Assembly: GCA_019090455.1 (NCBI GenBank)
Contig: JAHRWA010000008.1
Coordinates: 8,083-72,082 of the forward strand
Direction: 5' to 3'
From: Pseudomonadales bacterium
Lineage (GTDB): Bacteria; Pseudomonadota; Gammaproteobacteria; Pseudomonadales; DC-out160
Length of the DNA stretch: 64,000 nucleotides
The first letter of the stretch is position 1, and each line of letters starts with the position of its first letter. The translations under genes and the position numbers were made by a program. This document shows, piece after piece, positions 678 through 28,482 of the stretch. The notes below the pieces were generated by a model. It made no database searches. It worked only from the letters and a program-made list of their open reading frames with translations, and was not told the DNA's origin.

Positions 678-1368
678 TTGCCTATCCGAAATTATCCTGC
701 CTGCACCCAAAAATGTTGAAACAAAATAGAGTCGGGTGGAATTATTCTTTGTCGGGAGTCCGCAGTGAGAGAGAAGACTTACATCCTAAATGACGAATAT
801 CCTTCCGCAAATGTTGTGAATTAATCGATAAATGGAAAGCGCCAGTGCCTAAACCATTTCAATTTCTTTCATGGGCGGCCATTCTATTTATTCGGGATTA
901 CGTCTCGCAGATCCTTGGATACAAAAGGTGCACAGGGTTTTCAAAATACCTTTTCCCAAATTAGAAAATCACTTTTTGTAGTTATATTTATTGTTGGAGT
1001 TGAAGTTGCAACGGATTCACTTAATGATGATTTAAAGGTAATTGATTGGGACTCCAAAAATAAGCTGGTGCCCTCTCCTACAGAAATATAAATCTATACC
1101 GCTCTTCCTCCTGTCCTTCAGTAATACCTAAGCCGATCGTTTATCGTGGCGCATCGTCGCCATAGATTGGTGATGGGGTTTTGCCATGTATTGTAAAAAC
1201 ATTTAAAACCTATATGGAAGGTTCTGTAGAAAATTAGATAACGCCTCTTTCAGGGCGCATGAAAAATTAATATAAAATAAATTGACAATAGCTTTTGAAT
1301 GACAGTGGTCTTACACTCCTAGGCAGTCTTTCGTAACTTAATTTAAAAACGGTTTGGGAGGTGACAGG

Positions 1369-2913: not shown

Positions 2914-2941
2914 TAGATACAGAAAGGAAAATGAAACAAAT

Positions 2942-2967
2942 AAACCGACAGAATTTCATGTCGGTTT
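2942..2967. terminator. Bidirectional hairpin terminator between the convergent monooxygenase and NRPS genes
   Basis: AAACCGACA (2942-2950) pairs with TGTCGGTTT (2959-2967) around an 8-nt loop. A/T runs lie on both sides. Confidence 0.65.
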
Positions 2968-3037
2968 ATTTGTTTCATAATACTAACGGAGTTTACCTAC
3001 TAGATATTTTCATAGAGTCCCTTCTATATAGTTTCTT

Positions 3038-6000
3038 CTATAGCGTTATTTCCTCAAACTCTTCTTCAAATTCACCCTCGGACCCACCTTCAGTTGAACC
3101 CGGCTGGATTGCTGTGGTGATGATCTCTGCTATGCCAGAAATCGTGGTGACATCAAACAAAGTATGTACACTAAGATCAACCGCTAACTCGGCTTTTATT
3201 CTTGAACGAATGCGTGTGACATCCAAGCTGTGCCCCCCTAAATCAAAGAAATCGAAGTTGGTGGATACATTGTCTAGTTCTAAAATATCTTGCCATATGG
3301 TTTTTAATTTCTGCTCAGTCTCATTTTTGGGGGCGATGTATTCTTTGCTTTCGTAGTTTGCAATTTCAGGTTCGGGGAGAGCACGTTTGTCGGTTTTTCC
3401 ATTTGCTGTTTTGGGGAACTGCTCCAGTATTACGTATGCCGATGGTACTAAAAATTGAGGTACCCTGTCTTTCATGCCAGCCTTTAATACATTGGGTGTG
3501 TGTTCTACACCGGGTATCAATAGTATGTAAGCTATTAGCTCTTTTGTGCCCTTATGATTCTCTTTTAGCAAGACACAGCTATCTCGAACTCCCGCTAACA
3601 TCTTAAGGTTTGATTCCACCTCTCCTAATTCAATACGATATCCACTGAGCTTAACTTGGTCATCAACGCGGCCCAGCAATTCGATGTTTCCATCTCCGTG
3701 AAACCGGCAGATATCGCCGGTTCGGTAAAGCCGGGCATCAGGAGTAGGATCAAATGGGTCAGAGATAAATTGCGCTAGCGTTTTTTCTGGTTGATTCAAA
3801 TATCTGTCTGCCACGCCATCGCCACCAACATAGAGCTCTCCGGCAACTCCTATCGGCACCTGTCTTTCTTGGGGGTCGAGGATGTAGACCGTTGAATTAG
3901 CGATGGGAGAACCAATCGGTATGCTTGTCGCGAATGAATCCACTGATTCCACAAGGTAGGTGGTTGCGAGGGTCGTATTTTCTGTTGGGCCATAGATATT
4001 AATTAAGCGTTTTGGTGCCGCCGCGCCATCGTTAGCCGTTAGCACTTCGCGCAGTTGACTCGCATCCGCATTTTCTGCTCCGAATATAACGGTATGGGCG
4101 TCAGCAAATACATCAATTTTTTGAGTTGTTAAATGATTGAATACTGAGGTGGATACGCCTAGTAGCTTGATATTCTTTTCCGCTATCATTTTGGGTAAAA
4201 GCTCGAGATCGAGTAGAGTCCCTTGTTCGACAATAACCAATTCACCGCCGTTCAATAGTGCGGCCCATATTTCGATAGTGGTGAGATCAAAGGACACATT
4301 CGAACAATGAAATACGGTGTCGCCAGGAAGGATGTCTATATAGTTGGTGTTGACTACCAATCTAGAAATGCCTTTGTGTCGAACACACACACCCTTTGGA
4401 TTACCGGTTGTACCGGATGTATACATCACATAAGCCAGATCCGTTGAACTGACAGGGATATCCAGATTAGTGTCGCTATAGTGTGTCAATTCTTCTTGCA
4501 AGTCTTCCCAGACCATGACGATCGACTGATGAGAGTTGTCACTTTCAGTCATGATTTTTCCCCGAATCCTTTGCATCATTTCTTGGCTGGCTTCGGAGGT
4601 AATTAAAACCGCTGATCCTGCATCTTCCAGTAGATACGCTATTCGATCTTGGGGGTATGAAGTGTCAATGGGGACGTAAACTCCTCCGACTTTTAATACG
4701 GCCAAAGTAGAGACAATCATGGACACTGAGCGGCCCAAGGCAATCGCGACCAGGTGGCCAGGTTTAACACCGGCGTCGACCAGTCGTCGCGCCATCTGAT
4801 TGGATGTTTGGTTGAGTTCACGGTAAGACCATTTTTCATGACCCAATGACAGAGCGGTGAACTCGGGGTATTCTGCGGCCTTATTTTCAAACTGAAACAT
4901 CAGTGATTTGTCTGAGGGGTACTCGGTTGAGGTGTTATTCCATTCTTTTAACAGTGCTAGCTCATCCGGCAAAACATAATTCAAACTACTGAGCGCTTCA
5001 GTCCCATTAAGGAGCTGTTGTGCGATCAATGTGATTCGTTCGAGAAGTCGACGGGAGTCAAACGCTGTGGGAGAGTAACTCAGGCTTAGCGTCAATCCTT
5101 CGTTGTCCTCTTGCACATATAAATGCACTACCTGTTCTACATTGTTTGAATGGCGCGTTAGTTTCTTTACCTTCGTGCCATTCAGCGAAAGTTGCGGCAT
5201 TGGGAGTAAGTAGTTGTAGTTAAACTCGGGGTCTGAAGACTCAACAATACTATTTCGTACGCTGGTTGAAAGTGCTTTATAGGGTTTTGACTCTTTCTGA
5301 AAACGACGAGCGGAATCCAATAACTGCGTGACTGAATCTTCCATGTTTTCAGGTTGAAATACGAAAGGTAAATTGTAGACGTAGATACCGAGATTGGATT
5401 GATGTCCTTTGGGTCGAACGCTCAACGCATTATTCACAATAAATGGGTTTGTTGGGCTGCCGTATTGTTTCAATATTAAGGCATAAATGCAGCGGAAGAA
5501 AAGCGCAGGGGTAATTGCCTTGGCACGACAATAGTGTTTGATTTCGGTAAATTTCCGCAGATTAATGACCTCGGATTGATGAATGAAATGCTCCTCTTCT
5601 ATTGCTCCATTTAAAAGGGAAGGTCGCCCTACTGAGAGAGGTTCTACATCTTGTAGTACGTCAGACCAATATTGTCTTAAGTCTGGGGTATCATATTCGT
5701 TTCGATGTTGGGTGATATATTCTAGGTAATCTGCATTTTTATTGAGTTTATGTTCAGATACCGCCGCTATTGTTTCGCTCTGTATATGGCTTTCTAGTTT
5801 TTGATACTTATTTAGAATCTGTTCAATATGAATAGAACCGCTGATTGCATCCATTAATATATGATGACAAGCGCTGGCAAAAATAAACCGGTTGTGACTC
5901 TGTCGCCAAACACGGTACCTCACTAATTGATTACCATGGATGTCATAGGGTTGATAAACGAATTGCTTCACCAAAGTTGATATTTCATCATCGGTTAGAT

Positions 6001-6418
6001 CTTGCGTAGTGGAATCAACTGTATCTAAAGTGGAATCAACCCTATCTAAAGAGCAATCAACGACATCTAAAGTGAAAGAGGGTTTTCGATAAATACATTG
6101 GAATGCCAGTTTCATCTCAAATTCTTGCTCATCACCTCTGTGAAAACGGGTTCGTAGTATGGCTTGGTCTTCATGTAAGGATCGAATGGCTTTTTCCAAC
6201 ATCACGTTATCCAGCTGCCCATCAATTGATAGGGATGCCCCAATACAACACTCTTGAGTGTTGGGGTTTATGATGCTGATGAAATACATGTCGTGTTGCA
6301 TCGGTGTTAACGAGAAAATGGATTCGATATCGATATTCGAGCCACGCTCTATATCTTGTTTGAGCGCAAAGTTAATATCTTGCGTCTGCGTTGTTGACGC
6401 TGTCTGATTCTTTTTCAT
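3038..6418 (-). CDS. Single-module nonribosomal peptide synthetase (C-A-T) with no TE, R or terminal C domain
   Basis: The condensation domain has the HHxxxDG motif (ACHHILMDAISG). Adenylation core motifs are LAYVMYTSGTTGNPKG, NIYGPTE, YRTGD, GRVDDQVKLSGYRIELGEVE and PKTANGKTDKRAL. The carrier domain has FFDLGGHSLD. The protein ends about 55 aa after the PCP serine. The track ORF starts at a TTG (6427); the ATG at 6418 is the more likely start. Confidence 0.9.
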   Translation of the reverse strand: MKKNQTASTTQTQDINFALKQDIERGSNIDIESIFSLTPMQHDMYFISIINPNTQECCIGASLSIDGQLDNVMLEKAIRSLHEDQAILRTRFHRGDEQEFEMKLAFQCIYRKPSFTLDVVDCSLDRVDSTLDTVDSTTQDLTDDEISTLVKQFVYQPYDIHGNQLVRYRVWRQSHNRFIFASACHHILMDAISGSIHIEQILNKYQKLESHIQSETIAAVSEHKLNKNADYLEYITQHRNEYDTPDLRQYWSDVLQDVEPLSVGRPSLLNGAIEEEHFIHQSEVINLRKFTEIKHYCRAKAITPALFFRCIYALILKQYGSPTNPFIVNNALSVRPKGHQSNLGIYVYNLPFVFQPENMEDSVTQLLDSARRFQKESKPYKALSTSVRNSIVESSDPEFNYNYLLPMPQLSLNGTKVKKLTRHSNNVEQVVHLYVQEDNEGLTLSLSYSPTAFDSRRLLERITLIAQQLLNGTEALSSLNYVLPDELALLKEWNNTSTEYPSDKSLMFQFENKAAEYPEFTALSLGHEKWSYRELNQTSNQMARRLVDAGVKPGHLVAIALGRSVSMIVSTLAVLKVGGVYVPIDTSYPQDRIAYLLEDAGSAVLITSEASQEMMQRIRGKIMTESDNSHQSIVMVWEDLQEELTHYSDTNLDIPVSSTDLAYVMYTSGTTGNPKGVCVRHKGISRLVVNTNYIDILPGDTVFHCSNVSFDLTTIEIWAALLNGGELVIVEQGTLLDLELLPKMIAEKNIKLLGVSTSVFNHLTTQKIDVFADAHTVIFGAENADASQLREVLTANDGAAAPKRLINIYGPTENTTLATTYLVESVDSFATSIPIGSPIANSTVYILDPQERQVPIGVAGELYVGGDGVADRYLNQPEKTLAQFISDPFDPTPDARLYRTGDICRFHGDGNIELLGRVDDQVKLSGYRIELGEVESNLKMLAGVRDSCVLLKENHKGTKELIAYILLIPGVEHTPNVLKAGMKDRVPQFLVPSAYVILEQFPKTANGKTDKRALPEPEIANYESKEYIAPKNETEQKLKTIWQDILELDNVSTNFDFFDLGGHSLDVTRIRSRIKAELAVDLSVHTLFDVTTISGIAEIITTAIQPGSTEGGSEGEFEEEFEEITL
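6009..6071. repeat. Three tandem 21-bp repeats inside the NRPS condensation-domain coding region
   Basis: The three units are gtggaatcaactgtatctaaa, gtggaatcaaccctatctaaa and gagcaatcaacgacatctaaa. They encode three 7-aa units (LDVVDCS-LDRVDST-LDTVDST) on the minus strand. Confidence 0.8.
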
Positions 6419-6456
6419 GTAGCACAACCCCCTATTTTTCTGTCTGTTCTATTTTT

Positions 6457-7662
6457 TTAGGCACAGCCATCAAGATAGATCACTTTTTTTCCTAGATAAT
6501 TGGTAAATTCCACTGTTGGATGACCATCCAAATCACCGTAATGCAAGCTATTGCTGTCTGATTCAGTGGTTCCATCGATGGGTATTTCGTATTTTCCCGT
6601 TTGGTGTACGATTTCATACATAGGTATAATTAACGACGAATCGTGTCTTCGTATTTCACTCAGTATTTTTCGGCCTTTCTCTACTTTCGGCCGGAATAGA
6701 TTGACGCCTGGGGTGAAAGGCATCGCGTGAAAAAGGTGTATGGGGATGATTTTAATTTGCACTAACAATAATAATAGTTGGCGTAACTTTTCCGTGGAAT
6801 CGTTAACGTCGTGCAAAAACGGAATTTGAGCGCACTTCAAGATTGAGCCGTAACCATACCGATCAAAAAGCGCGACGGCTGCCTTGAATTCAGGGGTGAT
6901 TTCCTCAGTACAGGCCACATGAAATACGATGGCGGTGACATCGTGTGTTTTACATAAAGTGATAAACTCTTCGTCGAAACGAAAAGGATTGTGGCTGAGG
7001 CAGCGAGTATGTATCCGTATAATTTTAATGCTTTCGATTTCCCGCAATGCCTTGAGTACTTGAGCGAGCTTCGAGTTTGACAAGATCATCGGGTCGCCAC
7101 CACTTAAGATGACTTCGTTGATTTCGGGATGATCTCTTAAATAGACAAGGGTGTTTTGCCATTCCCCACTTTTGTTAAAGCCATTTTTCTCCTTCTCCAT
7201 ATCGAGCGTCCTGGCTACTTTAAAACAGTAGGAGCAATAGGCAAGGCAGGTATCAGTGACATCGAGTAGCGCTTTGTAAGCATATTTATGATGGAGAAGC
7301 TGAGTGGGGAACTCCTCCGAATGTTCCCAGTTTTCATGATATCCGTGAAAGGCATCCGCAGCATCGGATGGCAATAAAGCCGCATCAGGAAAGAATTGTC
7401 TCGCAATGGGATCTGAAAGAGTCGGCAATCCCGATTCACATTTAAATTGGCTGATGAGATAGGGCGTCAATTGAAATCTAAAACGTTGCAGGTATTCAGC
7501 CAAACCGGTTTGTCTTTCTTGGCTTAGCCCGGGGTAGAGTTGAACAAGGTCTTTTAAAGTGCGGATGGCAAATTTTTGCTGCCATACCCAATCCGTCCAT
7601 TGCTCAATACGCACATTCCGGTAGAAAACGTGCCGATGATCATGCGATTTTATGGCTTCCAT
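6457..7662 (-). CDS. Lysine 2,3-aminomutase (KamA)-family radical SAM/PLP aminomutase
   Basis: The radical SAM cluster motif is CLAYCSYCFK (CxxxCxxC). The N-terminus is KamA-type (W.DW.WQ ... LTPYLISQF ... DPIARQFFP). LSGGDPM is present, and a probable PLP lysine lies in HQTGKYEIP. Confidence 0.8.
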   Translation of the reverse strand: MEAIKSHDHRHVFYRNVRIEQWTDWVWQQKFAIRTLKDLVQLYPGLSQERQTGLAEYLQRFRFQLTPYLISQFKCESGLPTLSDPIARQFFPDAALLPSDAADAFHGYHENWEHSEEFPTQLLHHKYAYKALLDVTDTCLAYCSYCFKVARTLDMEKEKNGFNKSGEWQNTLVYLRDHPEINEVILSGGDPMILSNSKLAQVLKALREIESIKIIRIHTRCLSHNPFRFDEEFITLCKTHDVTAIVFHVACTEEITPEFKAAVALFDRYGYGSILKCAQIPFLHDVNDSTEKLRQLLLLLVQIKIIPIHLFHAMPFTPGVNLFRPKVEKGRKILSEIRRHDSSLIIPMYEIVHQTGKYEIPIDGTTESDSNSLHYGDLDGHPTVEFTNYLGKKVIYLDGCA

Positions 7663-7695
7663 AGCGGGGTCCTTTCCTGTTTTTTATACTTATTC

Positions 7696-7740
7696 CCTTC
7701 GTGCTCTAACTCTAACTCTAACCTTCGTGCTCTAACCTTC
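7696..7740. repeat. Intergenic direct repeats between the Fe/2OG oxygenase and aminomutase genes
   Basis: CCTTCGTGCTCTAAC occurs at 7696-7710 and again at 7722-7736. Two extra TCTAAC hexamers separate the two copies. Confidence 0.8.
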
Positions 7741-7751
7741 TATAGAAAACC

Positions 7752-8708
7752 TCACGCAAACGCGGCAATTATTCTTCTATGACCAGAGCTTGGTGTCCAA
7801 TTAGCGACACCATGTGTCCAGGTGAGATTGTTTTGGATGACTAAGTCATTGGGTTGTAACTTATAAGAGATTTTACATTTAAAAAGTTGATCATACCGAC
7901 TACCGAAATGCCCTATTCTAAGACCCGGATCAGAATCAAACATCTTAAATTCCGAAATGCCGGCAGACTGTTTTAGCAAGCCGCTCTCTAGCAGTAGGTT
8001 TTTGAATTGTTCTAGTGAGTCATAGTCTATGGACTCGGTGGTATACCAAAGGGTGTGCAAGTCTTGGTTTAATATATTTGAATGTAATTTTTTCGGAGAT
8101 GCTAGAACATCATAGAGGGTAATGTTTGAATCGATGGTCGTCGCTTTTAATATTTCATCATCGCTCGTTAAGCTATCTTCCGGCATGTTGAGTCTATACC
8201 TCATCCTCAATTGACTTTTCTCAGATCGGCTTAAACTTCTTTTCGTCACTCCCTTTACGACTTTGTCACGAAGTATGCCCCACATTTCGCTATTTTGATC
8301 AACGTTCATCAGTATTGTCTCGCCACCATCAGTGGTATTTTCTAGACAATAAAAAGCAGCCATTTGCATACCCAGCAAATGGCTGCCTTCAGAATGGGGA
8401 GTTACAATTTTATAATCCTTGCGTTTATCTACTGTCATAAAATAGTCTCCCACATTATCACGGTGTCCTGCGAGGGAAGCCATTCCAGCTTGCAGCTCTA
8501 AGGATTCAAGTAGAGCAAAACCTTTTGCAATTTCGGCGATCAAACGGTCCGCTTCAGTGGGATCGACATTTTGTATCAACGCAACCTGATCCTTCTTCAA
8601 TGATGCGATTGCAAAACTAGCGTCATCTTTAACTGTGCGGGAGTTTATCCTGGATAAGCGACTCTTATCCTCTATTACAATCCCGCCCTGAGCAGTACAA
8701 TCTTGCAT
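7752..8708 (-). CDS. Fe(II)/2-oxoglutarate-dependent oxygenase, clavaminate-synthase/TauD-fold; candidate amino-acid hydroxylase
   Basis: A candidate HxE...H facial triad is present (TPHSEGS and, about 190 aa later, WTHGVANW), followed by a C-terminal Arg (GHRRIIA). HxE rather than HxD is typical of the CAS-like amino-acid beta-hydroxylases. The family call is from motifs only. Confidence 0.55.
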   Translation of the reverse strand: MQDCTAQGGIVIEDKSRLSRINSRTVKDDASFAIASLKKDQVALIQNVDPTEADRLIAEIAKGFALLESLELQAGMASLAGHRDNVGDYFMTVDKRKDYKIVTPHSEGSHLLGMQMAAFYCLENTTDGGETILMNVDQNSEMWGILRDKVVKGVTKRSLSRSEKSQLRMRYRLNMPEDSLTSDDEILKATTIDSNITLYDVLASPKKLHSNILNQDLHTLWYTTESIDYDSLEQFKNLLLESGLLKQSAGISEFKMFDSDPGLRIGHFGSRYDQLFKCKISYKLQPNDLVIQNNLTWTHGVANWTPSSGHRRIIAAFA

Positions 8709-8735: not shown

Positions 8736-8829
8736 TGGCGGAAGAGGTAGGAGTCGAACCCACCAAGCACCTTATCAGCGCCTCACTGGCTTTGAAGGCC
8801 AGGCACCCCACCGGGGACATCGCTCTTCC
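8736..8829 (-). tRNA. selC: tRNA-Sec (anticodon UCA)
   Basis: The minus-strand sequence is GGAAGAGCGATGTCCCCGGTGGGGTGCCTGGCCTTCAAAGCCAGTGAGGCGCTGATAAGGTGCTTGGTGGGTTCGACTCCTACCTCTTCCGCCA. It has the anticodon arm CTGGC-CTTCAAA-GCCAG (UCA), a long variable arm, the T-loop TTCGACT and an encoded CCA. The overall layout matches E. coli selC, and the gene lies directly downstream of selA-selB. Confidence 0.93.
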
Positions 8830-8849
8830 GAGATTGATCGGAATCCAGT

Positions 8850-10784
8850 TTATCGTGTAAATTCTTTTTCTGGAAGTGTCGTGTCGATTATCCTTCGGCT
8901 GCTACCATCGCGTAGGGTAAAACGAATAGAGTCGAAATATTCCAGCACTTCGATGATGAGATTACGGCCTACGCCGGTGATGTTTTTGTAGTTGCCGACA
9001 TTGATTGCCTCACCCCTCGCGTCCAGTACTAATACTTTTTGTGCGTAATCAAGAAGTTGATGAGGTAGTCCATAACGCTTTTCGTTAAGTTTTAACACCA
9101 GCCCCTGACGCTGTGCACGATTCAAGGTATCCATCACTTTTGGTTTACTCCAGGCTGTCACCTTCATCAATTCTGAGACTAACGGCATCTGTGCTGCCTG
9201 CTTTTCAAAAATGGGCTTTAGCGTTTTCCAGTGCGGTGGATCGGCTTCCTCTTCTTTGGCTTTATAGCCGGGTGTTTGTACTAGTCCACCCACCATCTTG
9301 AGTAATCCTTTTTGAATGGCTTCAGAAAGAATCGCTTGAAACAGCGTGCTTGTTATGACGTTTTGCAATTGTTCTAGCAAAGCAGATAATGGTAACCCTG
9401 TTTTTTCGGGGTGCTTTAAATGCAGTTGCTGCACGGCTTTAAGTAGCGTTTTTTCAGCAACCTGCCAGTGCTCCTTGGCGATGATGTAGCAAATGCTTTC
9501 CTGGATAAAATGCTTAGCGCCATCCAGGTTTTTCAATGCCTGCGTTTCCTGATCGCGCAGGTTCCAACTGCGGCTGAAATCGCTGAGGTTAATTTCAAAT
9601 TCCTGAGTCTCAAGAAGTTGCTTGATAGACTGCTCGGCATCGTCATGTGACATCGCTGCCAGATACGTTAATCGCTGCTCTCTGGATTTGCCTGCGCGCG
9701 GTGCCAGAGGGTCGAGTATCACCCCTCCGCCGAGAGTGACGGTTTCACTGTGATCTCTCAGTAGAAACCTATCGCCGTGACAACAAGAAAAAGGCAGGGG
9801 CGACATCAGCTGTACGAGTGCCTCGGTACCCGGTTGAAGACGGGGTCGTGCAGCTTCATCAATAATATAGAGTCTCGCCTCAATATGTTTTGCAGCGATG
9901 TGTAACTTGACGGGTGACAAGTGTTTCACCGCAAACGGCGCATCGGTCAGCAGACGAAAACGCGCATCACAACGATGTACCAGTGGAGCATCGATTGCAG
10001 TTGTCAGCACATCACCTCGGCTGATTTGTTGTCTCTCAATGTTGCCAGTAATATTGAGAGCGCAACGTTGTCCGGCTTGTCCGCTTTGTGCATCCTTATC
10101 CTGTACCCGTAGAGATCTGACTCGTAGCGTTTTACCCAGTGGCAACAACTGTAGTTCATCACCCACATTGATCTTACCTGCTGCGACGGTTCCAGTGACC
10201 ACCAAGCCTATGCCCTTGAGTGAAAATGCGCGGTCGATAGACATGCGAAAGTGACAATCTAAATTGCGAGCATTGTGTTGCAGTGGATGATTCTGCAAAT
10301 AGTTTAGCAACTCTGAAATTCCCTCACCCGTGGTGTTGGAGACGGTGAACAGGTCGCATTGTTGGCTTTTTAATAAATCGCGCACTTGCGCGCCGACTTC
10401 TTTCACTCGTGTGGCAGGCACTCGGTCTATTTTGGATACCACCGCGACAAAATGTTTGAGCCCAAGTAAACGAAGAACATTCAGGTGTTCTATGGTTTGC
10501 GGCATGGGCCCATCGTCCGCAGCCACTACCAGCATCCCTAGATCTATGCCACTGACCCCTGAAATCATCGTGTTAATAAAACGGCTGTGGCCAGGCACGT
10601 CGATAAAGCCCAACCGGGTGTCATTGTTCTGGGAATCCGTGGCGAGTGGGAGATAGGCGAAACCGAGGTTGATGGAAAGACCTCGGCGTTTTTCTTCCTC
10701 CAGACGATCGGTATCGATACCGGTTAATTGTTTGATCAACGAAGTCTTGCCATGATCTACGTGACCTGCGGTGGCAATGATCAA
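8850..10784 (-). CDS. selB: Selenocysteine-specific translation elongation factor SelB
   Basis: The N-terminal GTPase has MIIATAGHVDHGKTSL, DVPGH and SKID motifs. The 644-aa length includes the long C-terminal extension characteristic of SelB. The gene overlaps selA by 4 bp and sits next to selC. Confidence 0.92.
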   Translation of the reverse strand: MIIATAGHVDHGKTSLIKQLTGIDTDRLEEEKRRGLSINLGFAYLPLATDSQNNDTRLGFIDVPGHSRFINTMISGVSGIDLGMLVVAADDGPMPQTIEHLNVLRLLGLKHFVAVVSKIDRVPATRVKEVGAQVRDLLKSQQCDLFTVSNTTGEGISELLNYLQNHPLQHNARNLDCHFRMSIDRAFSLKGIGLVVTGTVAAGKINVGDELQLLPLGKTLRVRSLRVQDKDAQSGQAGQRCALNITGNIERQQISRGDVLTTAIDAPLVHRCDARFRLLTDAPFAVKHLSPVKLHIAAKHIEARLYIIDEAARPRLQPGTEALVQLMSPLPFSCCHGDRFLLRDHSETVTLGGGVILDPLAPRAGKSREQRLTYLAAMSHDDAEQSIKQLLETQEFEINLSDFSRSWNLRDQETQALKNLDGAKHFIQESICYIIAKEHWQVAEKTLLKAVQQLHLKHPEKTGLPLSALLEQLQNVITSTLFQAILSEAIQKGLLKMVGGLVQTPGYKAKEEEADPPHWKTLKPIFEKQAAQMPLVSELMKVTAWSKPKVMDTLNRAQRQGLVLKLNEKRYGLPHQLLDYAQKVLVLDARGEAINVGNYKNITGVGRNLIIEVLEYFDSIRFTLRDGSSRRIIDTTLPEKEFTR

Positions 10785-12199
10785 AACAGTTTCTCTCTTA
10801 GTTGTGCCAATTGTGCGACAAAATCCGCCTCTTGTTCCAAACAGCGCAGATCCAGTAATACGCCACCTTTGTGTAGGCGCCCGATCACCGGTATGGGTAA
10901 TGCTCGCAACGCTTCAATCAGACAGCGAAGTTCACTGTCGATGGCTTTTAACGGTTTTATTTCCAAGCAGGCACTGGCAAGGGTTTCGATGGGTAGTGCA
11001 CCACTGCCAATTTGGCTGAAGCCGGGGACGACGGTAACGACAAAGCGGGGTGTTAACGCTGCGCTCAGTATCGGCGCTAGGTTTGTTGCTTGGCTTTGAA
11101 TTATTTCTAAGGGTCGGGTCAGTTGCCTTAAGGTGGGAAGCTCTTGCAGCAAGGCTTCAGGATTACGATACAGTTTTAGCACCTCACTTAATGCCGCAAG
11201 GGTCATTTTGTCTAAACGCAAAGCCCGCTTAAGCGGATTCTTTTTTATTTTCTCTATCAAGTCTTTGCGTCCAGCAATAATTCCCGCTTGGGGGCCACCA
11301 AGCAGTTTGTCACCGCTGAAGGTAATGATATCGGCTCCATTGTTGATGGAGGTGGCAGCGCTTGGCTCATCCGGTAAACCCAAACTGGAAAAATCGATGA
11401 GGCTACCGCTGCCTAAATCGATGACAAAAGGTAAATTATGCTGACCTGACAGATGTGCCAAATCCACTTCACCCACCGATTTGGTGAAACCCTCTACGCG
11501 GTAATTACTGGTGTGTACTTTCATTAATAAAGCCGTTTGTGAATTGATGGCCTGTTCATAATCTCGCAGATGGGTGCGATTAGTGGCGCCAATTTCTACC
11601 AACGTACAACCGGAGCGTGACATAACCTCAGGGATGCGAAAGGAGCCGCCAATTTCCACCAACTCTCCCCTCGATACCGGCACCTCTTGGTTCATGGCCA
11701 GCGTGTTAAGCACTAATAATACTGCGGCGGCATTGTTATTGACGGCGGTAGCGGCTTCAGCGCCGGTGAGTTCACAAATCTGCGCTTCAATATGGGATTC
11801 GCGGTCGTCGCGTTTGCCGGTAGAGAGATCGAATTCAAGATTGGAAGGGGATTGAGCAACCATCACCATCGCCTCTATCGCCCTTTGCGGCAGAGATGCC
11901 CGCCCCAGATTGGTATGTAAAACAGTGCCGGATAAATTGAAAACAGGGCGTAGGCTGCATTTATCCATGTTCTCTAATTTCGCGGTAGCAGCAGACTGAA
12001 TGGCCTCAATGGAATGTGCCGGGGAATCTCCCGCTGTAATGGCCGTACGCAACAGCGACAATTCCTCACGAAGTGCTGCGACAAATTGTTCATGGCCCCA
12101 GCGTTCTATTAATGGTTGCGATTTTTGCAACAGGCTATCGATTCCGGGCAACTGGCGAAACAGCGCTTGAGTTGTCGAGTTGTCACGGCTCGTTGACAT
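10781..12199 (-). CDS. selA: L-seryl-tRNA(Sec) selenium transferase SelA
   Basis: The 472-aa protein carries a PLP-lysine motif, FSGDKLLGGPQAG. Its position upstream of selB-selC, with ATGA overlap coupling, fits selA. Confidence 0.9.
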   Translation of the reverse strand: MSTSRDNSTTQALFRQLPGIDSLLQKSQPLIERWGHEQFVAALREELSLLRTAITAGDSPAHSIEAIQSAATAKLENMDKCSLRPVFNLSGTVLHTNLGRASLPQRAIEAMVMVAQSPSNLEFDLSTGKRDDRESHIEAQICELTGAEAATAVNNNAAAVLLVLNTLAMNQEVPVSRGELVEIGGSFRIPEVMSRSGCTLVEIGATNRTHLRDYEQAINSQTALLMKVHTSNYRVEGFTKSVGEVDLAHLSGQHNLPFVIDLGSGSLIDFSSLGLPDEPSAATSINNGADIITFSGDKLLGGPQAGIIAGRKDLIEKIKKNPLKRALRLDKMTLAALSEVLKLYRNPEALLQELPTLRQLTRPLEIIQSQATNLAPILSAALTPRFVVTVVPGFSQIGSGALPIETLASACLEIKPLKAIDSELRCLIEALRALPIPVIGRLHKGGVLLDLRCLEQEADFVAQLAQLREKLF

Positions 12200-12372: not shown

Positions 12373-13248
12373 ATGAATATGCATCCTCCCGTCAGTTACA
12401 TCCAGCAAACGAAGGCGCTTTATGACAGCCTCGGTTATGAACCTTATAAATGGTTTGCAGCCGATTCAGAGCCCGCTTTCACCAAGCTCAAACAACCATT
12501 GTCAGAATGCAAACTCGGATTAGTCTCTACTGCAGGCACTTATGTTGCCGGCCAGGTAGCGTACTACTACAAGGACGATACCAGTGTTCGAGCCATTCCC
12601 AGTAATACGCCGGTGGAAGATATTCGTTTCTCCCACGTTACTGAAAATTATTTAGTCGATGCCCGTCAAGATCCGCGTTGCACTGTTCCTCTTGAGGCAC
12701 TGCAAACTTTGCAGAAAAAAGGCGTCATCGGTTCATTGGCGAATAACTTTTTTTCTTGCATGGGGGGTATTTATTCCCAGCGTCGGGTTGTGGATGAGCT
12801 GATTCCTGCATTGGAAAAAGGCATTGCCGATGAAGAGATTGATGTGCTTCTGATGGTGCCGTTGTGACCCGTTTGTAATCAGACCGTGTGTCTGATATCC
12901 CGTCATTTTGAAGCGAAAGGAATACCTACACTTATTCTTGGAGGTGGTCAGGACATCTTGCAGGCAGGAAAACCGCCGAGGGCTAAATTTCTGAATTACC
13001 CACTGGGTTTTGGCACAGGCAAGCCCTTTGACACAGAGAATCAACTGGCAGTGCTAACAGCGGCTGTTGCGGGTTTCGATAGCATGCTGAAACCGGGGGT
13101 TGAGTCTCTGGATTTCTCCTGGGATTCGGGGTGGGAGATGATAGCGGAACGAGACAAAAATAAAGATGGAGCGGATCAACGCTCGCCTCGAGATACCACA
13201 CCTCGTTATCAAACGGAACGAGACAAGGAATTGGCCGAAGGTAATTAG
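12373..13248 (+). CDS. GrdB/PrdB-family (glycine/betaine/sarcosine/D-proline reductase B-like) selenoprotein with Sec encoded by TGA at 12865-12867
   Basis: Track ORFs 12373-12867 and 12886-13248 are in the same frame and are separated only by one TGA. Read-through gives ...IDVLLMVPL-U-PVCNQTVCLISRHFEAKGIPTLILGGG...PPRAKFLNYPLGFGTGKPF..., which has a UxxC redox motif in the position I recall for this family. A hairpin starts 11 nt after the TGA. The gene lies 173 bp from, and divergent to, selA. Confidence 0.8.
12878..12896 (+). promoter_or_regulatory. SECIS-like hairpin downstream of the in-frame UGA
   Basis: ATCAGAC (12878-12884) pairs perfectly with GTCTGAT (12890-12896). The loop CGUGU contains GU. 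The stem begins 11 nt 3' of the UGA. Confidence 0.65.
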
Positions 13249-13249
13249 T

Positions 13250-13753
13250 ATGGCGACCGATGACCATTCAGAAATGAAGAATGCAACGACAGACAACACC
13301 ACTATTCGGAAAATTCTGGATGAGTCAAAAACCATTGCGATAGTGGGATTGTCGGGCAACTGGTATCGGCCGAGTTTTTTTGCCGCGAAATATCTGCTGG
13401 AACGTGGATTTAATGTCGTCCCAGTAAACCCTAATTATGAGGAGATACTGGGGCAGAAGTGTTATCCGAATCTTGAGTCTATTCCCGATAAAGTGGATGT
13501 GGTCGATCTATTTCAAAAAGTGGAGCAAGTGCCTAAATTTGTGCAACCCGCTATCGATATCGGTGCCAAAGTGCTCTGGCTGCAACTGGGTATTGTTCAC
13601 GAAAAAGCAGCGGCTCAAGCTCACAATGCCGGCCTAAAAGTGGTCATGGATCGCTGCATGAAAATTGAATACGCGCGATTGTTTGGCGGCTTGAATTGGG
13701 CGGGTGTCAATACCGGTATTATTTCAGCCAAGCGTCCTCGGCGATTACCTTAA
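13250..13753 (+). CDS. CoA-binding domain protein (YccU/YneT-like)
   Basis: The ATG at 13250 lies 2 nt after the selenoprotein stop; the longer track ORF (13166) overlaps that gene. The protein has the typical IAIVGLS.....PS.....YL...G..V.PVNP pattern and a short Rossmann-like CoA-binding fold of about 165 aa. Confidence 0.75.
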   Translation: MATDDHSEMKNATTDNTTIRKILDESKTIAIVGLSGNWYRPSFFAAKYLLERGFNVVPVNPNYEEILGQKCYPNLESIPDKVDVVDLFQKVEQVPKFVQPAIDIGAKVLWLQLGIVHEKAAAQAHNAGLKVVMDRCMKIEYARLFGGLNWAGVNTGIISAKRPRRLP

Positions 13754-13769: not shown

Positions 13770-15077
<1,308 letters not shown>

Positions 15078-15379
15078 AATTTGAATGCATGTCGGTGTCA
15101 CCAAAAACCCGTATTTAATGGTCAAGCGAGGGAGATTTTTTATTAGGCAGCAACGACTCAGTATTTTCTTATTATTGGGTTTCTTAGTTTCAGCTAGTAA
15201 GCGTGTGGCCTGTAAAGAATAAATTAAAGGCATCCACAGCGTGCCCTTTTTTATTGTCTCGTTTATTTGTCATATTCAAATGTTAGGCTGCGTAGCTCTA
15301 TACCAAGAACTTGGTATTTAATCTGACATCGAAATTACATAGAGTTTGATAATCCTGGGTTAAATATAAAGGAAATCAA

Positions 15380-18300
15380 ATGAGCATCGGAAAATGCGAA
15401 GCATTAAAACGTCACCAATCTAGACAAACTCTTGGTCAATCTATTGATCATTATAAAAAACGGATTCGTTACGCCGGCTTTATTTTTCTATCTCAGTTCT
15501 TACTGATCACGGCCAACGCTGAAACAGTGACTATTTTGCCTGATGGTCCGGACCAAATGCCGGTCTTGTTTATACACGGTGTTAATTCCGATGGTGCTTT
15601 GTGGGGAGTGGGGCCAACAGAGGGGCATTTGGGGGGACGTGTAGATTTAGCGAGCAAGTATATCGAAACTAAAACGTTGGGGCCTGCTCGTTCCCCTTCT
15701 CGATTCTTTGATCAGCAGGGTATACCCAACTGGGCGGTTCAATGGAAAGCGGAGGGAGGCGATAGTCCTTATGCTAGCGCGGATGAAGGGCATGCATTTT
15801 TACAAACCCCAGCTGAATTAAGGGCAGGCGTTGACTGGATTGAGGGGACGTGGACCTCTCAAAATAACCCGCTACCCAGTGCAAAAAGCGTTTTAGCTTC
15901 ATTGCATATCCTTGACGTGGATACGACTAATCTTCCTCTTCCTATTACTGAAATTGATAAAGTGGCAGCCCCAAATTTTTCAAGATTGATGATCGCAGCT
16001 CAATTGCCCGGAAGACATAATTATCAAACAGCAGGTCGTATTGATGGTCGTGCTGATAATCTGTTGGATATGTTAGCGTCTGAGCGCAGCGAAATGGGTA
16101 AACTTGGCAAGTATAGACAAGTCAATATTCTCACTCACTCAATGGGAAGCCTGATCACTCGGGCCGCATTACACAAGGCGGTTGAGGATGGTTCTCGTCA
16201 AGATTCAGAATTTGTCGCGAACGTGATTTATAACGCGCCTCCGTTCGCGGGCTCTACATTGGCATATCTGGCGAACTTATTGTTTGAACCGACACTAGTG
16301 ACTCGGGAAGTATTTGCCGATCCTATGGTTAGGCGGATGTTAGAGACGCATCCAGTAGCAGTCGCATCTATTGGTGGATTGATAGATGTTATTATTTCTC
16401 CCCTTTATAGGGAGCTGGGTTTTACTTCTACCTCATTTTACGGCTCCTTACCGTTATCGTTCAAAGTAACAAAATTCCTTTTAGATAGAACGAACGGAGG
16501 TAATGCGGGTATTCTTTTATTAAATTATCTTACGGTGGATATATTTTGGGGAAATGTAGCGGCGACCTTTATGAATACAGGATTGCGCGCACTCCTTCGG
16601 GATTATAATGGACTGCCGGGGATGAAAGAGCTGGAGCCGGAAGGTGGGGCAACTCACATCACACGTTATGATAATCATCCCGATATAAAACAATTTGTCA
16701 CTTTGGGTAATGGTGGTCCACAAGTAAACTTGTTTCCTGATAATTTGAGTTCAATCGTCACTAACCCCGATATATTATTCAATCCGCCTTTTTTATCTGC
16801 TCAGCAAGATGATTTGGCCTTGGCTACCGGTAGTGCAGAGCTATTAACAACGACCGATGCTTTTGGTCCGGCCATGACACTGCTGTCGCCTATCAATTCA
16901 ACCTCGGGTGTCTTTAATGGTTTTACCCATGAAGATTTGTGGTCCCATAATGTGCCGGCCATGGCTCCAGTGTGGCTGAAAACCTTATGGGTGCCGCCGA
17001 CCAGTTTAATCTTAGACGGTGATGTTATTGAAGCGGATTCGGCATCACGTAGTTATGTTATTAATGATCTGGATACGGAAATTCGATTTGAGTCGGAGTC
17101 CTTTGATAAAGCGTTAACTTTTACGGCACCGTTTCCTGTCAATCAACAAGATAGTTTAACGATTAATGTAGCCGCTGCATCTCATCAATACCGCGTTATT
17201 CCCGACAATGGTACTTTCACTGAAGTCGAAGAATGGCAGGAGTTGGCGGTGGGTTCCAGCCTTTCGTTCCGGCAAATTGTCGATGATTTTTCGCTATCAG
17301 GAACTCCCTTCTTTCTGGAATGGCGCTCGATTAATGCCATAGGAGGTCGAGAGATGATTCGGCGAGCACGTTTTGCCGTGATAGGGGATGTCGCTCAGAT
17401 ATCCAGTTACCGACTGTTGGCCGTTGATTACAGTGAGGTGTTGGAGAAGTCTGCTTACTCGCATTTGGATGCTAAAGCCGTACGCAATAAACTATTACTG
17501 CGGACGCTAGAGGGGAATGCCTCTTTATTGGAAAAGTTAGCGCAAGTGCAGGCGCAAACCGAGGCGAAGTGGGTGTTACGCAATCCGCAAAGCAAAGCAC
17601 TTTTCTTCACCTTCGATGCACGCACGGATATAGAGTATGCGTGGGATGATGAAACCCTTTCTAACCCCAGCAATCGGGCGGATGTGGATAGCGCGGTAAT
17701 CAATTTAGGTTCTTTAAGCGAGGGGCGTCACAATTTGTTTATACGTACATCGGTATCCGCAATCGGTGTTACACAACAATCGGATATTATGCAATTCAGT
17801 GTGTTAGTCGATAACACACCACCGTTGATCCATTTTACCCAAGCCAGCAATCATCCGTTAGGGGTGGTCGTCGGGCCGATGACGCCATTGTATTTTACAG
17901 TACAGGATATTGAAACCAACGCGGCAACGGGCGTGGCATTGTTGGCGGGTCAGGAGAAATGGACTTACCCCGATAGCAAAATTTTTAATTTAAATAATAC
18001 AGATTTTATTGAAGACCTCGAATCGAAGGGTATCGCCGGCGGCTTTGTTGATATTGTTTTTAACGCGGAAGACGCCGTTGGAAATCGCAGTGAAATCACT
18101 GAGCAGTTTTATTTGGATATCGTCTCGCCCGACCAAGAAATTGTTGAAATTACGGATACATTATTAGTTGCGCAAGGTGAATATAAAACCGCGACAAAGA
18201 CGGTGACATTAGTGTTAGATCAGTCAGATTCCGGAGCCGGTGTGACTGAAAACCCACACTTAATGGGGGTGCATGAAAATGGCGAACTGGTTGCCAATGA

Positions 18301-20875
18301 AACGTTGATTAAAGGAGCCGTCGCAGGATTCTTACAAAGTTATAGCGCCGATATAGAATTATCGGAGGGTATCAATCACTTCGTTGTGAATTCTGTCGAT
18401 ATTGCCGGTAATGTTGCCGCACTGGAATTTGATATTGAATACGCATCAATTGAATCTGTTAGTGATGTTGATATGTTGTCGCCTCGGCTGGAGAGCTGCT
18501 TTGATGAAGAGGGGGAAGCTGCAATTTGCGGGTCGACAGGTGCGATTGACGAAATGGCCACGTCCTATCACGGAGATACCACGGTATTTTCCTCCAGCGG
18601 ACGACGTTTTGTTCATGGTGATTTTAATAAGGAGCAGGATGTCTTTGTTTATCGTAATGGATTGTTGTCTTTAGTGAGTAGTACGCAAGATCTAGAGCAG
18701 AGCAATGGGAGAAGCCAGCAGCCTGCTGTTTCAGGAAACGGTCGATATATTGTCTTTCAAAGTGCAGCGACGAATCTGGTCGCTAATACAGAACAAACGA
18801 GTAGCACGCAGAAGAACTTATATATAAAAGACTTGGATACAGGAAAAATTGCGGTAATTTCCCGAGAAAGCGACCAATCCCCTGCAAATCTATTCGGTAG
18901 TTTTAATTATTTATCTGCGATTACCTATTCGGGACGTTATGTGTTTTTTTCTGCTCGTGTGAATCGATTCGTTGACGGAATGACCTCACCGGATAATTTT
19001 AACAAGATGTACATGGTTGATCTTGATCCCGATGCTAACGGAGATTATTTTGATGATAATTATCAAAATCACGCAGTCTCCTATAGAGCCGATGAAGAAA
19101 CAGAAATGTTAGCGGGAAATATGTTGAACGCCAGTGTGAGCCAGAATGGTAAATACCTGGCGTTCAGTACGGGTGTGAATGAACTCACTACGTCTGCAGG
19201 TATTATGTTGTTTAAATTTTCCGGCAATGATGTAGATGGCACGTTGGATGTGTCTCAGAGAGAAGCCGTTTTTATTGGGGGCGGTAGTTTGGCTCGTGTT
19301 AGCCCAAGAGGTGATAGTGTTGCTTTCCTCACTCGTGATAATTTAACGGCAGATGATGACAATCAAGATGGCGTTGATGCGGACATCTATCTTTCGTCGG
19401 GTGAAACAGCAGGCGGAAGTTTTAGTAATCGTCAGCTTGAATTGGTAAGCAAGTCCCATGACGGTGGAGGGTCAGCAGGTAACGGCGGATATGTCATTAA
19501 ACATATTGCTATTAGCCAGGATGCTCCTTCAAGCTCAAGTGACAGCGACGTAAAAGTCAGTTGGGTGTCGGAACACAATAATATTGTGTTGAACGACGGT
19601 AATAATGCAGAAGACCTTTTTGTTTATCGCCAGTCACTCACTTTTCCTGATGGTTTAGAAGTGCCGAATTGGATTAGCAGTGATACACCCTCTATTAACG
19701 TCGGAGCGGGCCTGTTAACCCCAGATGGGCGTTACGCTCTCTGGACGACTCGACAAACTTACTTTGATCCGTTTGCACCCGATGGGAATACCAACGTCTA
19801 TCGACGACGAATTGATCCCATTGCAGAAATCACATTAGACGTAGCGATAGTCGGTGACGGTACTGTGAATCGCTTTCCGGAAGGCAGTGAAGTCACAGCC
19901 TCTACGTTTGATTATAATGACGATGAACAGGTCGTGTTAACGGCTCGGGCGAATGAGAATTCAGTCTTTATCGGCTGGACGATCGCTGATGGAGCGGGTA
20001 GCAGTGGTTTGGGTAGCGATGGCAACAGTACAAACTCTGTCTTGACATTAAAAATGCATGAGGCGAAAAGTGTTGTCGCGAATTTCGAAACCGTTCCTGG
20101 CCCTGTATCAGCGGCCGTTGAAATCACTACTGATCAGAATGTAGAAAGTCTCGGTGTAGAACCCGTCATCCAAGGTGAGCCGCAGCATTTGTATTCGGTA
20201 ACAATAGAGTCTAACCCGTTAAACGGTCAGGTTCGAGCCAGCAACGGCCTGCTGTTTTATAAACCCGATGTCGATTTTGTTGGCAGCGATAGTTTTACCT
20301 TCCAAGTTGAGAATCAATTTGGACAACGCTTGGCGACACCCGCTACTGGGACCGTTATTGTTAACGCCGTTAACCAGGCGCCAGAATCTGCAACATTAGT
20401 CATTGAAACTCAAATGAATGTTGCCAGTGAATTAACAGAGCCTGAAATTGTCGACAGTACTGAGGATGAGGTATTTACTTACCGTGTGCTGATCCCACCA
20501 AACAATGGTGTTGTTAACATCATTGATGACGGCTTTATCTATACTCCGGTAACGGGGTTTGTGGGTGAGGATAGTTTTCTGTATCAGATAACGGATTCCG
20601 CCGATAACACGCTATCGGCAACAGCAACGATTACAGTACTGTCGTCCACGTTTGTTGAGCCATCGGAAGAACCCGTTGAGAATACAAATCCAGACATCGT
20701 TGATGAAACTGAAGATCCTATCGAAGATGAATCTAATCCGCCCTCGAATGATGATGCGGGTGAAGAGTCAGGTGGCGGCGGTGGAGGTGGTGCGTTGGAA
20801 CCTGTGAGGCTTTTTGTCTTCATGATGCTACTGCTTTTTCTTAGAATGAGGGGGTTGCGAAGAAAATTGGTGTAG
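15380..20875 (+). CDS. Giant secreted multidomain protein: lipase-like alpha/beta hydrolase, Ig-like domains, TolB/PD40-like beta-propeller repeats, InlB-B-type repeat, two cadherin/Big-like domains, acidic linker and a GlyGly-CTERM-like anchor
   Basis: The signal peptide is FIFLSQFLLITANA. The hydrolase has PVLFIHGVNSDG and the nucleophile elbow LTHSMGS. Repeated PD40-like strands are present (SGNGRYIVFQSAATNLV, SQNGKYLAFST, SPRGDSVAFLT, TPDGRYALWTT). There is an SVFIGWT-type repeat and two DFVG.DSF.(F/Y)Q modules. The C-terminus is SGGGGGGALEPVRLFVFMMLLLFLRMRGLRRKLV, a Gly run followed by a TM helix and a basic cluster. Confidence 0.75.
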   Translation: MSIGKCEALKRHQSRQTLGQSIDHYKKRIRYAGFIFLSQFLLITANAETVTILPDGPDQMPVLFIHGVNSDGALWGVGPTEGHLGGRVDLASKYIETKTLGPARSPSRFFDQQGIPNWAVQWKAEGGDSPYASADEGHAFLQTPAELRAGVDWIEGTWTSQNNPLPSAKSVLASLHILDVDTTNLPLPITEIDKVAAPNFSRLMIAAQLPGRHNYQTAGRIDGRADNLLDMLASERSEMGKLGKYRQVNILTHSMGSLITRAALHKAVEDGSRQDSEFVANVIYNAPPFAGSTLAYLANLLFEPTLVTREVFADPMVRRMLETHPVAVASIGGLIDVIISPLYRELGFTSTSFYGSLPLSFKVTKFLLDRTNGGNAGILLLNYLTVDIFWGNVAATFMNTGLRALLRDYNGLPGMKELEPEGGATHITRYDNHPDIKQFVTLGNGGPQVNLFPDNLSSIVTNPDILFNPPFLSAQQDDLALATGSAELLTTTDAFGPAMTLLSPINSTSGVFNGFTHEDLWSHNVPAMAPVWLKTLWVPPTSLILDGDVIEADSASRSYVINDLDTEIRFESESFDKALTFTAPFPVNQQDSLTINVAAASHQYRVIPDNGTFTEVEEWQELAVGSSLSFRQIVDDFSLSGTPFFLEWRSINAIGGREMIRRARFAVIGDVAQISSYRLLAVDYSEVLEKSAYSHLDAKAVRNKLLLRTLEGNASLLEKLAQVQAQTEAKWVLRNPQSKALFFTFDARTDIEYAWDDETLSNPSNRADVDSAVINLGSLSEGRHNLFIRTSVSAIGVTQQSDIMQFSVLVDNTPPLIHFTQASNHPLGVVVGPMTPLYFTVQDIETNAATGVALLAGQEKWTYPDSKIFNLNNTDFIEDLESKGIAGGFVDIVFNAEDAVGNRSEITEQFYLDIVSPDQEIVEITDTLLVAQGEYKTATKTVTLVLDQSDSGAGVTENPHLMGVHENGELVANETLIKGAVAGFLQSYSADIELSEGINHFVVNSVDIAGNVAALEFDIEYASIESVSDVDMLSPRLESCFDEEGEAAICGSTGAIDEMATSYHGDTTVFSSSGRRFVHGDFNKEQDVFVYRNGLLSLVSSTQDLEQSNGRSQQPAVSGNGRYIVFQSAATNLVANTEQTSSTQKNLYIKDLDTGKIAVISRESDQSPANLFGSFNYLSAITYSGRYVFFSARVNRFVDGMTSPDNFNKMYMVDLDPDANGDYFDDNYQNHAVSYRADEETEMLAGNMLNASVSQNGKYLAFSTGVNELTTSAGIMLFKFSGNDVDGTLDVSQREAVFIGGGSLARVSPRGDSVAFLTRDNLTADDDNQDGVDADIYLSSGETAGGSFSNRQLELVSKSHDGGGSAGNGGYVIKHIAISQDAPSSSSDSDVKVSWVSEHNNIVLNDGNNAEDLFVYRQSLTFPDGLEVPNWISSDTPSINVGAGLLTPDGRYALWTTRQTYFDPFAPDGNTNVYRRRIDPIAEITLDVAIVGDGTVNRFPEGSEVTASTFDYNDDEQVVLTARANENSVFIGWTIADGAGSSGLGSDGNSTNSVLTLKMHEAKSVVANFETVPGPVSAAVEITTDQNVESLGVEPVIQGEPQHLYSVTIESNPLNGQVRASNGLLFYKPDVDFVGSDSFTFQVENQFGQRLATPATGTVIVNAVNQAPESATLVIETQMNVASELTEPEIVDSTEDEVFTYRVLIPPNNGVVNIIDDGFIYTPVTGFVGEDSFLYQITDSADNTLSATATITVLSSTFVEPSEEPVENTNPDIVDETEDPIEDESNPPSNDDAGEESGGGGGGGALEPVRLFVFMMLLLFLRMRGLRRKLV

Positions 20876-25136: not shown

Positions 25137-25602
25137 TGTTTCTCTATTTTCCATTGTGCCTGCGATAACGTTGGCACATGGGATCTTCTAAGTATTTCTT
25201 CGTCCCGCCTCAGATCTTTAATCATTTGCTGCACTAGCTAATTTTATCCCTATCCAAAGTTACTACCATTCAATGTTACCGCCATCCAAAGTTGAGACAA
25301 GCTTGAATCGTTATTGAAGTTCGATTGCCAATCGACAGAGAATCATTTTTTGATGATTAGAGTTGTCCACATTGATGTGAGTCAATGGCTTTTAATATGA
25401 TCCCGCTAATCTTCTAGTTTTAGCGCCACTGATCCTTTCTATACATAGAGAATAGAACGACATAGCGAGTAGCAGGTAGAGTTCGAAAATCTCATTTTTG
25501 AGGGATTTCCCCCAATACTCAGATCAGTGTGTGCGTGATACTCAGTTCAATTAGACGCATCACGGAGACAAGTGAGATATGCAGCTGAAGACCCATTTGT
25601 TT

Positions 25603-25670
25603 AATGAATCTAGGCTTAATGAATCTAGGCTTAATAAATCTAAGCTTAATAAATCTAGGCTTAAGAAATG
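25603..25670. repeat. 15-bp tandem repeat, about 4.5 copies, at the 5' end of the coxB reading frame
   Basis: The units are aatgaatctaggctt, aatgaatctaggctt, aataaatctaagctt, aataaatctaggctt and a partial aagaaatg. They translate as LNESR-LNESR-LNKSK-LNKSR in the long ORF. Confidence 0.9.
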
Positions 25671-25680
25671 TTGGATTTTA

Positions 25681-26817: not shown

Positions 26818-26875
26818 TCTCAATGTTAAATGAATAACTATAAACATTAACTAATAGTCAAAGAAGGGATAAGTA

Positions 26876-28435: not shown

Positions 28436-28482
28436 CTTCTATCAACAATCTAGATTAACCATTTAAGGGAAGGGAGACGTTA

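Follow-up and report, generated by a model that had tools for sequence, protein, structure and literature searches.

A stretch of 64,000 nucleotides from a Pseudomonadales bacterium (the window) very probably contains, at 12379-13248 on the plus strand, a genuine gene decoded with selenocysteine (Sec, U). Sequence comparison predicts a complete selenoprotein gene of the PrdB/GrdB superfamily with a U-x-x-C motif: it occupies one frame with one internal TGA, its product matches the PrdB model TIGR04483 and aligns end to end with full-length Cys homologues, and its DNA is the same in four assemblies. The UGA at 12865-12867 would be read as Sec with the help of a putative bacterial SECIS hairpin at 12878-12896.

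The open reading frames 12373-12867 and 12886-13248 lie in the same frame (their starts are both 1 mod 3), and translation shows that the sole stop between 12373 and 13248 on the plus strand is the TGA at 12865-12867, the frame closing with a TAG at 13246-13248. Around the internal stop the translation runs ...DVLLMVPL*PVCNQTVCL..., or at greater length ...EEIDVLLMVPL*PVCNQTVCLISRHFEAKGIPT...; if the UGA is decoded as Sec, the peptide spanning it is ...LLMVPL-U-PVCNQTVCLISR. Read-through yields a single chain of 289-291 amino acids containing ...VPL-U-PVC..., and an earlier note on this DNA, which had proposed that the two frames form one gene interrupted by a single TGA, is borne out by the translation. 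That note placed the start at 12373. The frame is right, but ATG 12379 is the likelier start codon because AGGAA lies 7 nt upstream of it and the public gene calls use it. From ATG 12379 the protein has 289 amino acids and the UGA encodes residue 163 (U163); from the alternative ATG 12373 the figures are 291 amino acids and U165. The GTG at 12886 is just the first start codon past the TGA and not a real start.

On four contigs of this organism that were assembled independently, public gene calls divide the gene into open reading frames of 162 and 120 amino acids, the split that the earlier note had expected of standard gene callers. The GenBank exact match to the N-terminal piece is entitled 'MAG: glycine/betaine/sarcosine/D-proline family reductase selenoprotein B [Pseudomonadales bacterium]'. 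A reassigned genetic code is ruled out as the source of the internal stop: TGA is an ordinary stop in 7 of the 36 family-supported open reading frames of the window, so the code is standard and the recoding is local.

With the read-through product as query, C replacing U, a search of 5.8 billion proteins gave two classes of match. One comprises full-length proteins of approximately 290 amino acids with 40-55% identity over 96-99% of the query; the other comprises the closest relatives (60-100% identity), all of which are fragments of 160-190 amino acids that end in ...LLVPL. Every aligned full-length homologue has Cys at the U column (LLVPM-C-PVCHQ), and the C-terminal 120 residues are kept in the alignment (PPRA.F.DYPLGH..GKP.D ... 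RD.TPRYQ..D..LAE). A scan of one genome per species gave 557 stretches encoding relatives, of which the best 80 were studied. These come from Gammaproteobacteria and Alphaproteobacteria, SAR324 and OM182, and are mostly marine metagenome-assembled genomes (MAGs), with Vineibacter terrae (CC-CFT640, locus L048) in addition. Complete genomes with the gene include CP121333.1, OZ242359.1, OZ219856.1 and OZ244119.1. Among these best 80 of 557 stretches the codon at the U column is TGA in 77 and TGC in 3. The Sec/Cys pair for which the earlier note had suggested looking is thus seen both in the proteins and in the loci.

The part of the gene after the TGA was likewise to be checked for conservation, and it proves to be conserved: its 120 amino acids show 42-73% identity in 80/80 loci, and in the related loci the frame runs on past the TGA for a median of 128 codons before a stop. 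Downstream of the TGA, pairwise nucleotide differences at codon positions 1, 2 and 3 are 0.36, 0.30 and 0.62, and this third-position excess indicates that the region is translated and under selection. These results bear on the reading that the gene is dead, a Cys codon (TGC or TGT) having been mutated or misread to TGA in a pseudogene or through sequencing or assembly error. A single-base change would suffice to turn TGC or TGT into TGA, the source is a metagenome-assembled genome and public annotation holds two fragments. However, the DNA of the four independent assemblies is identical at 876/876 nt, TGA included, which excludes assembly error; the same TGA is found in nearly all the species-level genomes just described; the downstream region is under purifying selection; and the hairpin considered below co-occurs strictly with TGA. 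Close relatives show no frameshifts or stops downstream. We regard a dead or misread gene as extremely improbable.

Several peculiarities of the window copy and of its relatives stand out. At 12868-12882 the window protein has U-PVC-N-Q where 84 homologues have U/C-PVC-H-Q. The Asn codon after the second Cys of the motif is the same in the 4 assemblies, and the His-to-Asn change puts A at an otherwise invariant C immediately 5' of the SECIS stem. The window protein also has PLGFG (13000-13015) where most of the family has PLGH. Four of the related loci (L053, L065, L045 and L022) carry public MAG labels that look wrong ('Klebsiella pneumoniae', 'Flavobacterium sp.', 'Candidatus Fonsibacter ubiquis'), and these are likely to be mis-binned or mislabelled records.

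The frame could alternatively hold two separate real genes, one for a protein of 162-164 amino acids ending at the TGA and the other for a protein of 120 amino acids beginning at GTG 12886. Such an arrangement matches gene-caller output, and some of the N-terminal piece is likely to be made as a truncated product in any case, since decoding at UGA always falls short of full efficiency. Against it, the Cys-form homologues are single chains that cover both parts, and the PVCNQT stretch, whose six codons separate the TGA from GTG 12886, is part of the family's most conserved motif. An AlphaFold (AF2) model built for the Cys homologue P0002, which is 55% identical to the window protein, likewise forms a single alpha/beta domain (pLDDT 94.7, pTM 0.93). 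Two genes are therefore very unlikely. Conservation, stop usage and assembly identity together lead us to reject the pseudogene, two-gene and code-reassignment readings, and to retain that of one gene with a UGA predicted to encode Sec.

A hairpin suited to recoding follows the UGA. The strand ATCAGAC (12878-12884) forms a perfect 7-bp stem with GTCTGAT (12890-12896) around the loop CGTGT (CGUGU in the RNA; 12885-12889). The stem begins at the 11th nucleotide past the UGA, leaving 10 nt between them; from the UGA to the loop there are 17 nt. The sequence thus confirms the perfect 7-bp stem, GU-containing loop and spacing that the earlier note had described. The conserved 6-bp core begins 11 nt past the UGA, a spacing that Liu et al. 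(1998) reportedly gave for the minimal E. coli SECIS element, and the bSECISearch model allows loop distances of 16-37 nt. The two strands of the window together contain 2,609 TGA trinucleotides, and only 9 of these have a perfect hairpin of 7 bp or more at +8 to +14; several of the nine are terminators, and the hairpin at 12878-12896 is the only one among them with GU in its loop.

Considered as a single sequence, the region is unremarkable. The folding energy of the 61-nt stretch 12860-12920 is no better than that of shuffles (z = -0.5). Rfam at gathering thresholds finds only the tRNA-Sec and no SECIS family in the whole window, and at E values up to 10 it finds no SECIS family over 12700-13050. 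The case for a SECIS element thus rests on comparative evidence. We compared the stem across 76 Sec-form sequences, 72 of them distinct. The core stem columns (24-29 with 35-40) are nearly always paired, and when the 3' partner is slid by 1-3 columns the proportion of paired cells falls from 86% to 19-47%. A compensatory change from G-C to A-U is complete in 6/6 sequences, the pair never being broken; it couples a Gln wobble base (CAG/CAA) to the first base of a Leu codon (CUG/UUG), both changes being synonymous. A second compensatory change, from U-A to C-G in 22 sequences, couples a His wobble base to an Ile/Val change. The loop consensus is C-G-U-G-W, in which neither the U nor the second G varies among the 76 sequences. 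An extended lower stem (columns 16-21 with 43-48) is found in many orthologues but has only partial support, since numerous cells are unpaired and its pairing is weak in the window gene, and we do not claim it.

The hairpin is kept in Sec forms and lost in Cys forms. Sec forms (n = 78) have 5.8 of 6 core pairs and a mean hairpin dG of -7.0 kcal/mol, against 2.5-3.2 of 6 core pairs and a mean dG of -1.2 kcal/mol in Cys forms (n = 7, a set that takes in four extra Cys-form loci, L085-L088). The structure thus exists only where a UGA needs recoding, and the constraint that it imposes accounts for the Sec forms being frozen at CHQTV[S/C]L while the Cys forms vary there. A search for the hairpin in orthologues, which the earlier note had named as a check, therefore turns it up with compensatory changes in Sec forms and misses it in Cys forms. 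We interpret the hairpin at 12878-12896 as a SECIS element on the basis of these comparisons, and predict that SelB binds it. The strict link between hairpin and TGA, together with covariation at synonymous sites, makes this a clean textbook example of a protein motif under constraint from RNA structure.

The machinery for Sec insertion is encoded alongside. The gene for selenocysteine synthase, selA (10781-12199, minus strand; TIGR00474 575 bits, cut-off 268; PF03841), is divergent from the selenoprotein gene, with a gap of 173 bp between selA and ATG 12373. It is followed by selB, encoding the Sec-specific elongation factor (8850-10784, minus strand; TIGR00475 407 bits, cut-off 242; winged-helix domains PF09106 and PF09107), and by selC, the tRNA-Sec with anticodon UCA (8737-8830, minus strand; detected by ARAGORN and by Rfam RF01852 at 66.4 bits). 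These matches agree with the earlier placement of the gene 173 bp from selA with selB and selC alongside. The sel operon, transcribed away from the selenoprotein gene, is very compact (8737-12199): selA and selB share 4 nt, and the tRNA-Sec lies 19 nt downstream of selB. Of the 80 related loci, those of the window's own lineage are the only ones with sel genes inside a distance of 6 kb from the selenoprotein gene. No selD was found among the window open reading frames scanned.

By the E. coli paradigm, SelB-GTP carrying Sec-tRNA(Sec) would bind the hairpin 12878-12896 on the 3' side of the UGA and deliver selenocysteine at 12865-12867, so that termination is avoided. In the protein, by analogy with PrdB/GrdB chemistry (PMC13188914), the selenolate would be the nucleophile that attacks a substrate carbon; the adduct would next be resolved by Cys168, three positions further along, to give a Se-S bond, and a dithiol or thioredoxin system would re-reduce this bond. 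The substrate is probably not D-proline, a point to which we return.

We place the protein in the PrdB/GrdB superfamily as a distant member and not as an orthologue of either enzyme, on the evidence of profile comparisons. Its best NCBIfam match is PrdB (TIGR04483, E = 2e-31), which extends across U from residue 33 to 235 and scores 109.2 bits against an equivalog cut-off of 300. Models for GrdH, GrdF and GrdB also align across U, over residues 95-187, again below cut-off (25.5 against 65.45 for TIGR01918; 18.4 against 22 for PF07355), and some homologues carry a precomputed weak PF07355 match. As every score falls under its curated cut-off, the relationship holds at the level of the superfamily only; the 'GrdB/PrdB-family' assignment made earlier is right in that the PrdB, GrdB, GrdF and GrdH models match across U, but it has to be loosened to that of a distant relative. 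A conserved C-terminal tail of approximately 55 amino acids extends past the PrdB profile.

The U-x-x-C active-site motif is listed for PrdB (PMC13188914), and in the window protein it reads U-P-V-C. In the P0002 model the Sec equivalent, Cys162, lies between a strand (155-159) and a helix (163-178), with the second Cys in the first helical turn. The modelled placement of U-x-x-C between a beta-strand and a helix N terminus would be the usual position of a redox dyad. A PDB sequence-profile search and a Foldseek search of the PDB with the high-confidence model gave no meaningful match to a solved relative.

The superfamily relationship raises the question of whether the protein is a genuine D-proline reductase PrdB subunit, partnered by a PrdA from another part of the genome. 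TIGR04483 is its top family match, JGI names relatives 'D-proline reductase (dithiol) PrdB', and the motif is shared. However, the score is far under the equivalog cut-off, and the C-terminal extension has no place in the PrdB profile. No PrdA/GrdE-type (Gly_reductase), GrdA or PrdC protein was found among the 45 window open reading frames of at least 150 amino acids or the called genes of loci L081-L088, although a copy may lie elsewhere in the genome, and no partner is conserved across 84 loci. The window also encodes an aa3-type cytochrome c oxidase (COX2, COX1 and COX3, within the ranges 25579-29421 and 31613-38254), which indicates that the host respires oxygen. We consider a genuine PrdB subunit unlikely, and the label 'D-proline reductase' is doubtful given the sub-cut-off score, the lack of a PrdA partner in the window and flanks, and the aerobic host.

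The gene neighbourhood suggests where else a substrate might be sought. A gene for a CoA-binding protein (CoA_binding_2; 13250-13753, plus strand; PF13380, E = 2e-38) is probably co-transcribed with the selenoprotein gene, since it begins 1 nt past the selenoprotein stop. The third gene of the probable operon encodes an O-acetylhomoserine sulfhydrylase of the MetY type (13779-15077, plus strand; TIGR01326 661 bits, cut-off 495), past which lies a terminator-like site (15229-15245). The trio of selenoprotein, CoA_binding_2 and MetY genes recurs at 10 related loci, where it is arranged in one or other of two orders. No neighbour is universally conserved across the 84 loci.

Cys-form genes have neighbours of a related kind. 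The gene begins 10 nt past an acyl-CoA dehydrogenase gene in L086 (1633-3124), overlaps the stop of an acyl-CoA dehydrogenase gene in L087 (4850-6867) and overlaps that of a family-III CoA-transferase gene in L088 (4779-6903); in L085 it comes after two acyl-CoA synthetase genes and before a gene with a Glu_synthase domain. Some CoA-related gene lies within 3.5 kb at 44/84 loci, a figure that comes without a background rate. These neighbours are a possible functional lead, and their recurrence offers a starting point towards the real substrate. We tentatively propose that the abundant marine 'PrdB' selenoproteins, the window protein among them, may be stand-alone Sec-dependent reductases that act without PrdA in aerobic proteobacteria on a substrate of acyl-CoA or organosulfur metabolism. 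This proposal draws on the translational coupling of Cys forms to acyl-CoA dehydrogenase or family-III CoA-transferase genes and on the linkage to CoA-binding and MetY genes in the window lineage; if it is true, one of the commonest selenoenzymes of the ocean would catalyse a new reaction.

We also looked through the window for further pairs of open reading frames separated by a TGA, and no other credible selenoprotein candidate came to light. At 50030-52117 on the minus strand, frames of 183 and 490 amino acids without Pfam or NCBIfam matches share one reading frame, with a single TGA and 21 codons between them. As this TGA has neither a Cys in its vicinity nor a hairpin behind it, the two are probably just adjacent genes.

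The remainder of the window holds several further gene groups. A secondary-metabolite-like cluster (1354-8708) adjoins the sel operon and consists of an FMO-like monooxygenase gene (1354-2913, plus strand) and, on the minus strand, genes for a single-module NRPS with C-A-T architecture (3038-6427) and a KamA-family radical-SAM aminomutase (6457-7662), together with a weak TauD-like open reading frame (7752-8708). The ranges 25579-29421 and 31613-38254 include a haem/iron uptake cluster encoding an ABC ATPase, a FecCD permease, a periplasmic binding protein, a TonB-dependent receptor and an HmuY-like protein. A protein of 1831 amino acids with bacterial Ig/cadherin-like repeats is encoded at 15380-20875 (plus strand) and is followed by a caspase-like peptidase C14 gene (21124-22125, minus strand). 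Within 55330-58637 (plus strand) lies ovoA, for ovothiol biosynthesis, whose product of 723 amino acids exceeds the cut-offs of both TIGR04344 (671 bits) and TIGR04345 (342 bits); a gene for a class I/II PLP enzyme (57498-58637), which could be the OvoB beta-lyase, overlaps it by 4 nt.

The gene belongs to a family with a history. In the Sargasso Sea survey, 'Proline reductase PrdB, UXXC' ranked third in abundance among selenoprotein families, with 42 Sec members and 1 Cys member (PMC1088965), and the GOS survey counted 235 Sec and 110 Cys PrdB members (PMC2398784). The 2005 Sargasso supplementary sequences include ...AALLVPLuPVCHQTVGLVARHLESNGIPT... with the hairpin CACCAGACTGTAGGTCTGGT (PMC1088965). 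The description of the window gene as a hidden selenoprotein thus holds for automatic annotation but not for the literature, the family having figured in selenoproteome surveys since 2005 (PMC1088965, PMC2398784). The window gene is a further mis-annotated member of this family, not a new kind of gene. Its significance lies in part in annotation: the gene stands as two fragments or as a truncated 'selenoprotein B family' protein in dozens of related genomes as well as in this MAG, and merging the fragments restores an enzyme with its active site and explains why selA, selB and selC are kept alongside. No new biological principle is involved, but an old loose end is sharpened, namely an abundant ocean family labelled 'D-proline reductase' in aerobes with no visible PrdA.

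Comparison with known systems helps to place the protein. With clostridial PrdB (TIGR04483; Kabisch et al. 1999, cited in PMC13188914) it shares approximately 200 homologous residues and a Sec in U-x-x-C at the homologous position. It differs in its score (109 bits against the cut-off of 300), in having no PrdA pyruvoyl proprotein or PrdC encoded nearby, in its aerobic proteobacterial host and in its extra C-terminal tail. For GrdB, GrdF and GrdH (PF07355, TIGR01918) the resemblance covers profile positions of approximately 280-370 out of approximately 435, which align with window residues 95-187, U included; unlike these proteins of approximately 435 amino acids, the window protein has approximately 290, and no grdA, grdC, grdD or grdE lies nearby. 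The hairpin resembles the E. coli fdhF-type SECIS in being part of the coding sequence and in following the UGA directly on its 3' side, whereas its C-G-U-G-W pentaloop, its core stem without a bulged U and its lack of an Rfam match set it apart.

The closest likeness is to the marine PrdB of the Sargasso and GOS surveys (Zhang, Fomenko & Gladyshev 2005, PMC1088965; Zhang & Gladyshev 2008, PMC2398784), which has the same UxxC motif within VPL-U-PVCHQTV and the same hairpin (CACCAGAC/CAAAC-NGUNN-GUCUGGU/GUUUGGU), comes from the same marine habitat and shows the same prevalence of Sec forms (42:1 in the Sargasso set and 77:3 here). One published Sargasso 'PrdB' aligns with the window protein, U included, at 38% identity (E = 1e-36). 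Unlike the Sargasso entries, the window gene adjoins a sel operon, and unlike the window subfamily, the published Sargasso sequences are all without MGGIYS, YYKDD and TPRYQ. As none of them carries any of these motifs, sequence comparison places the window gene as a putative sister subfamily, or a more complete member, of the marine PrdB family and not as an identical entry.
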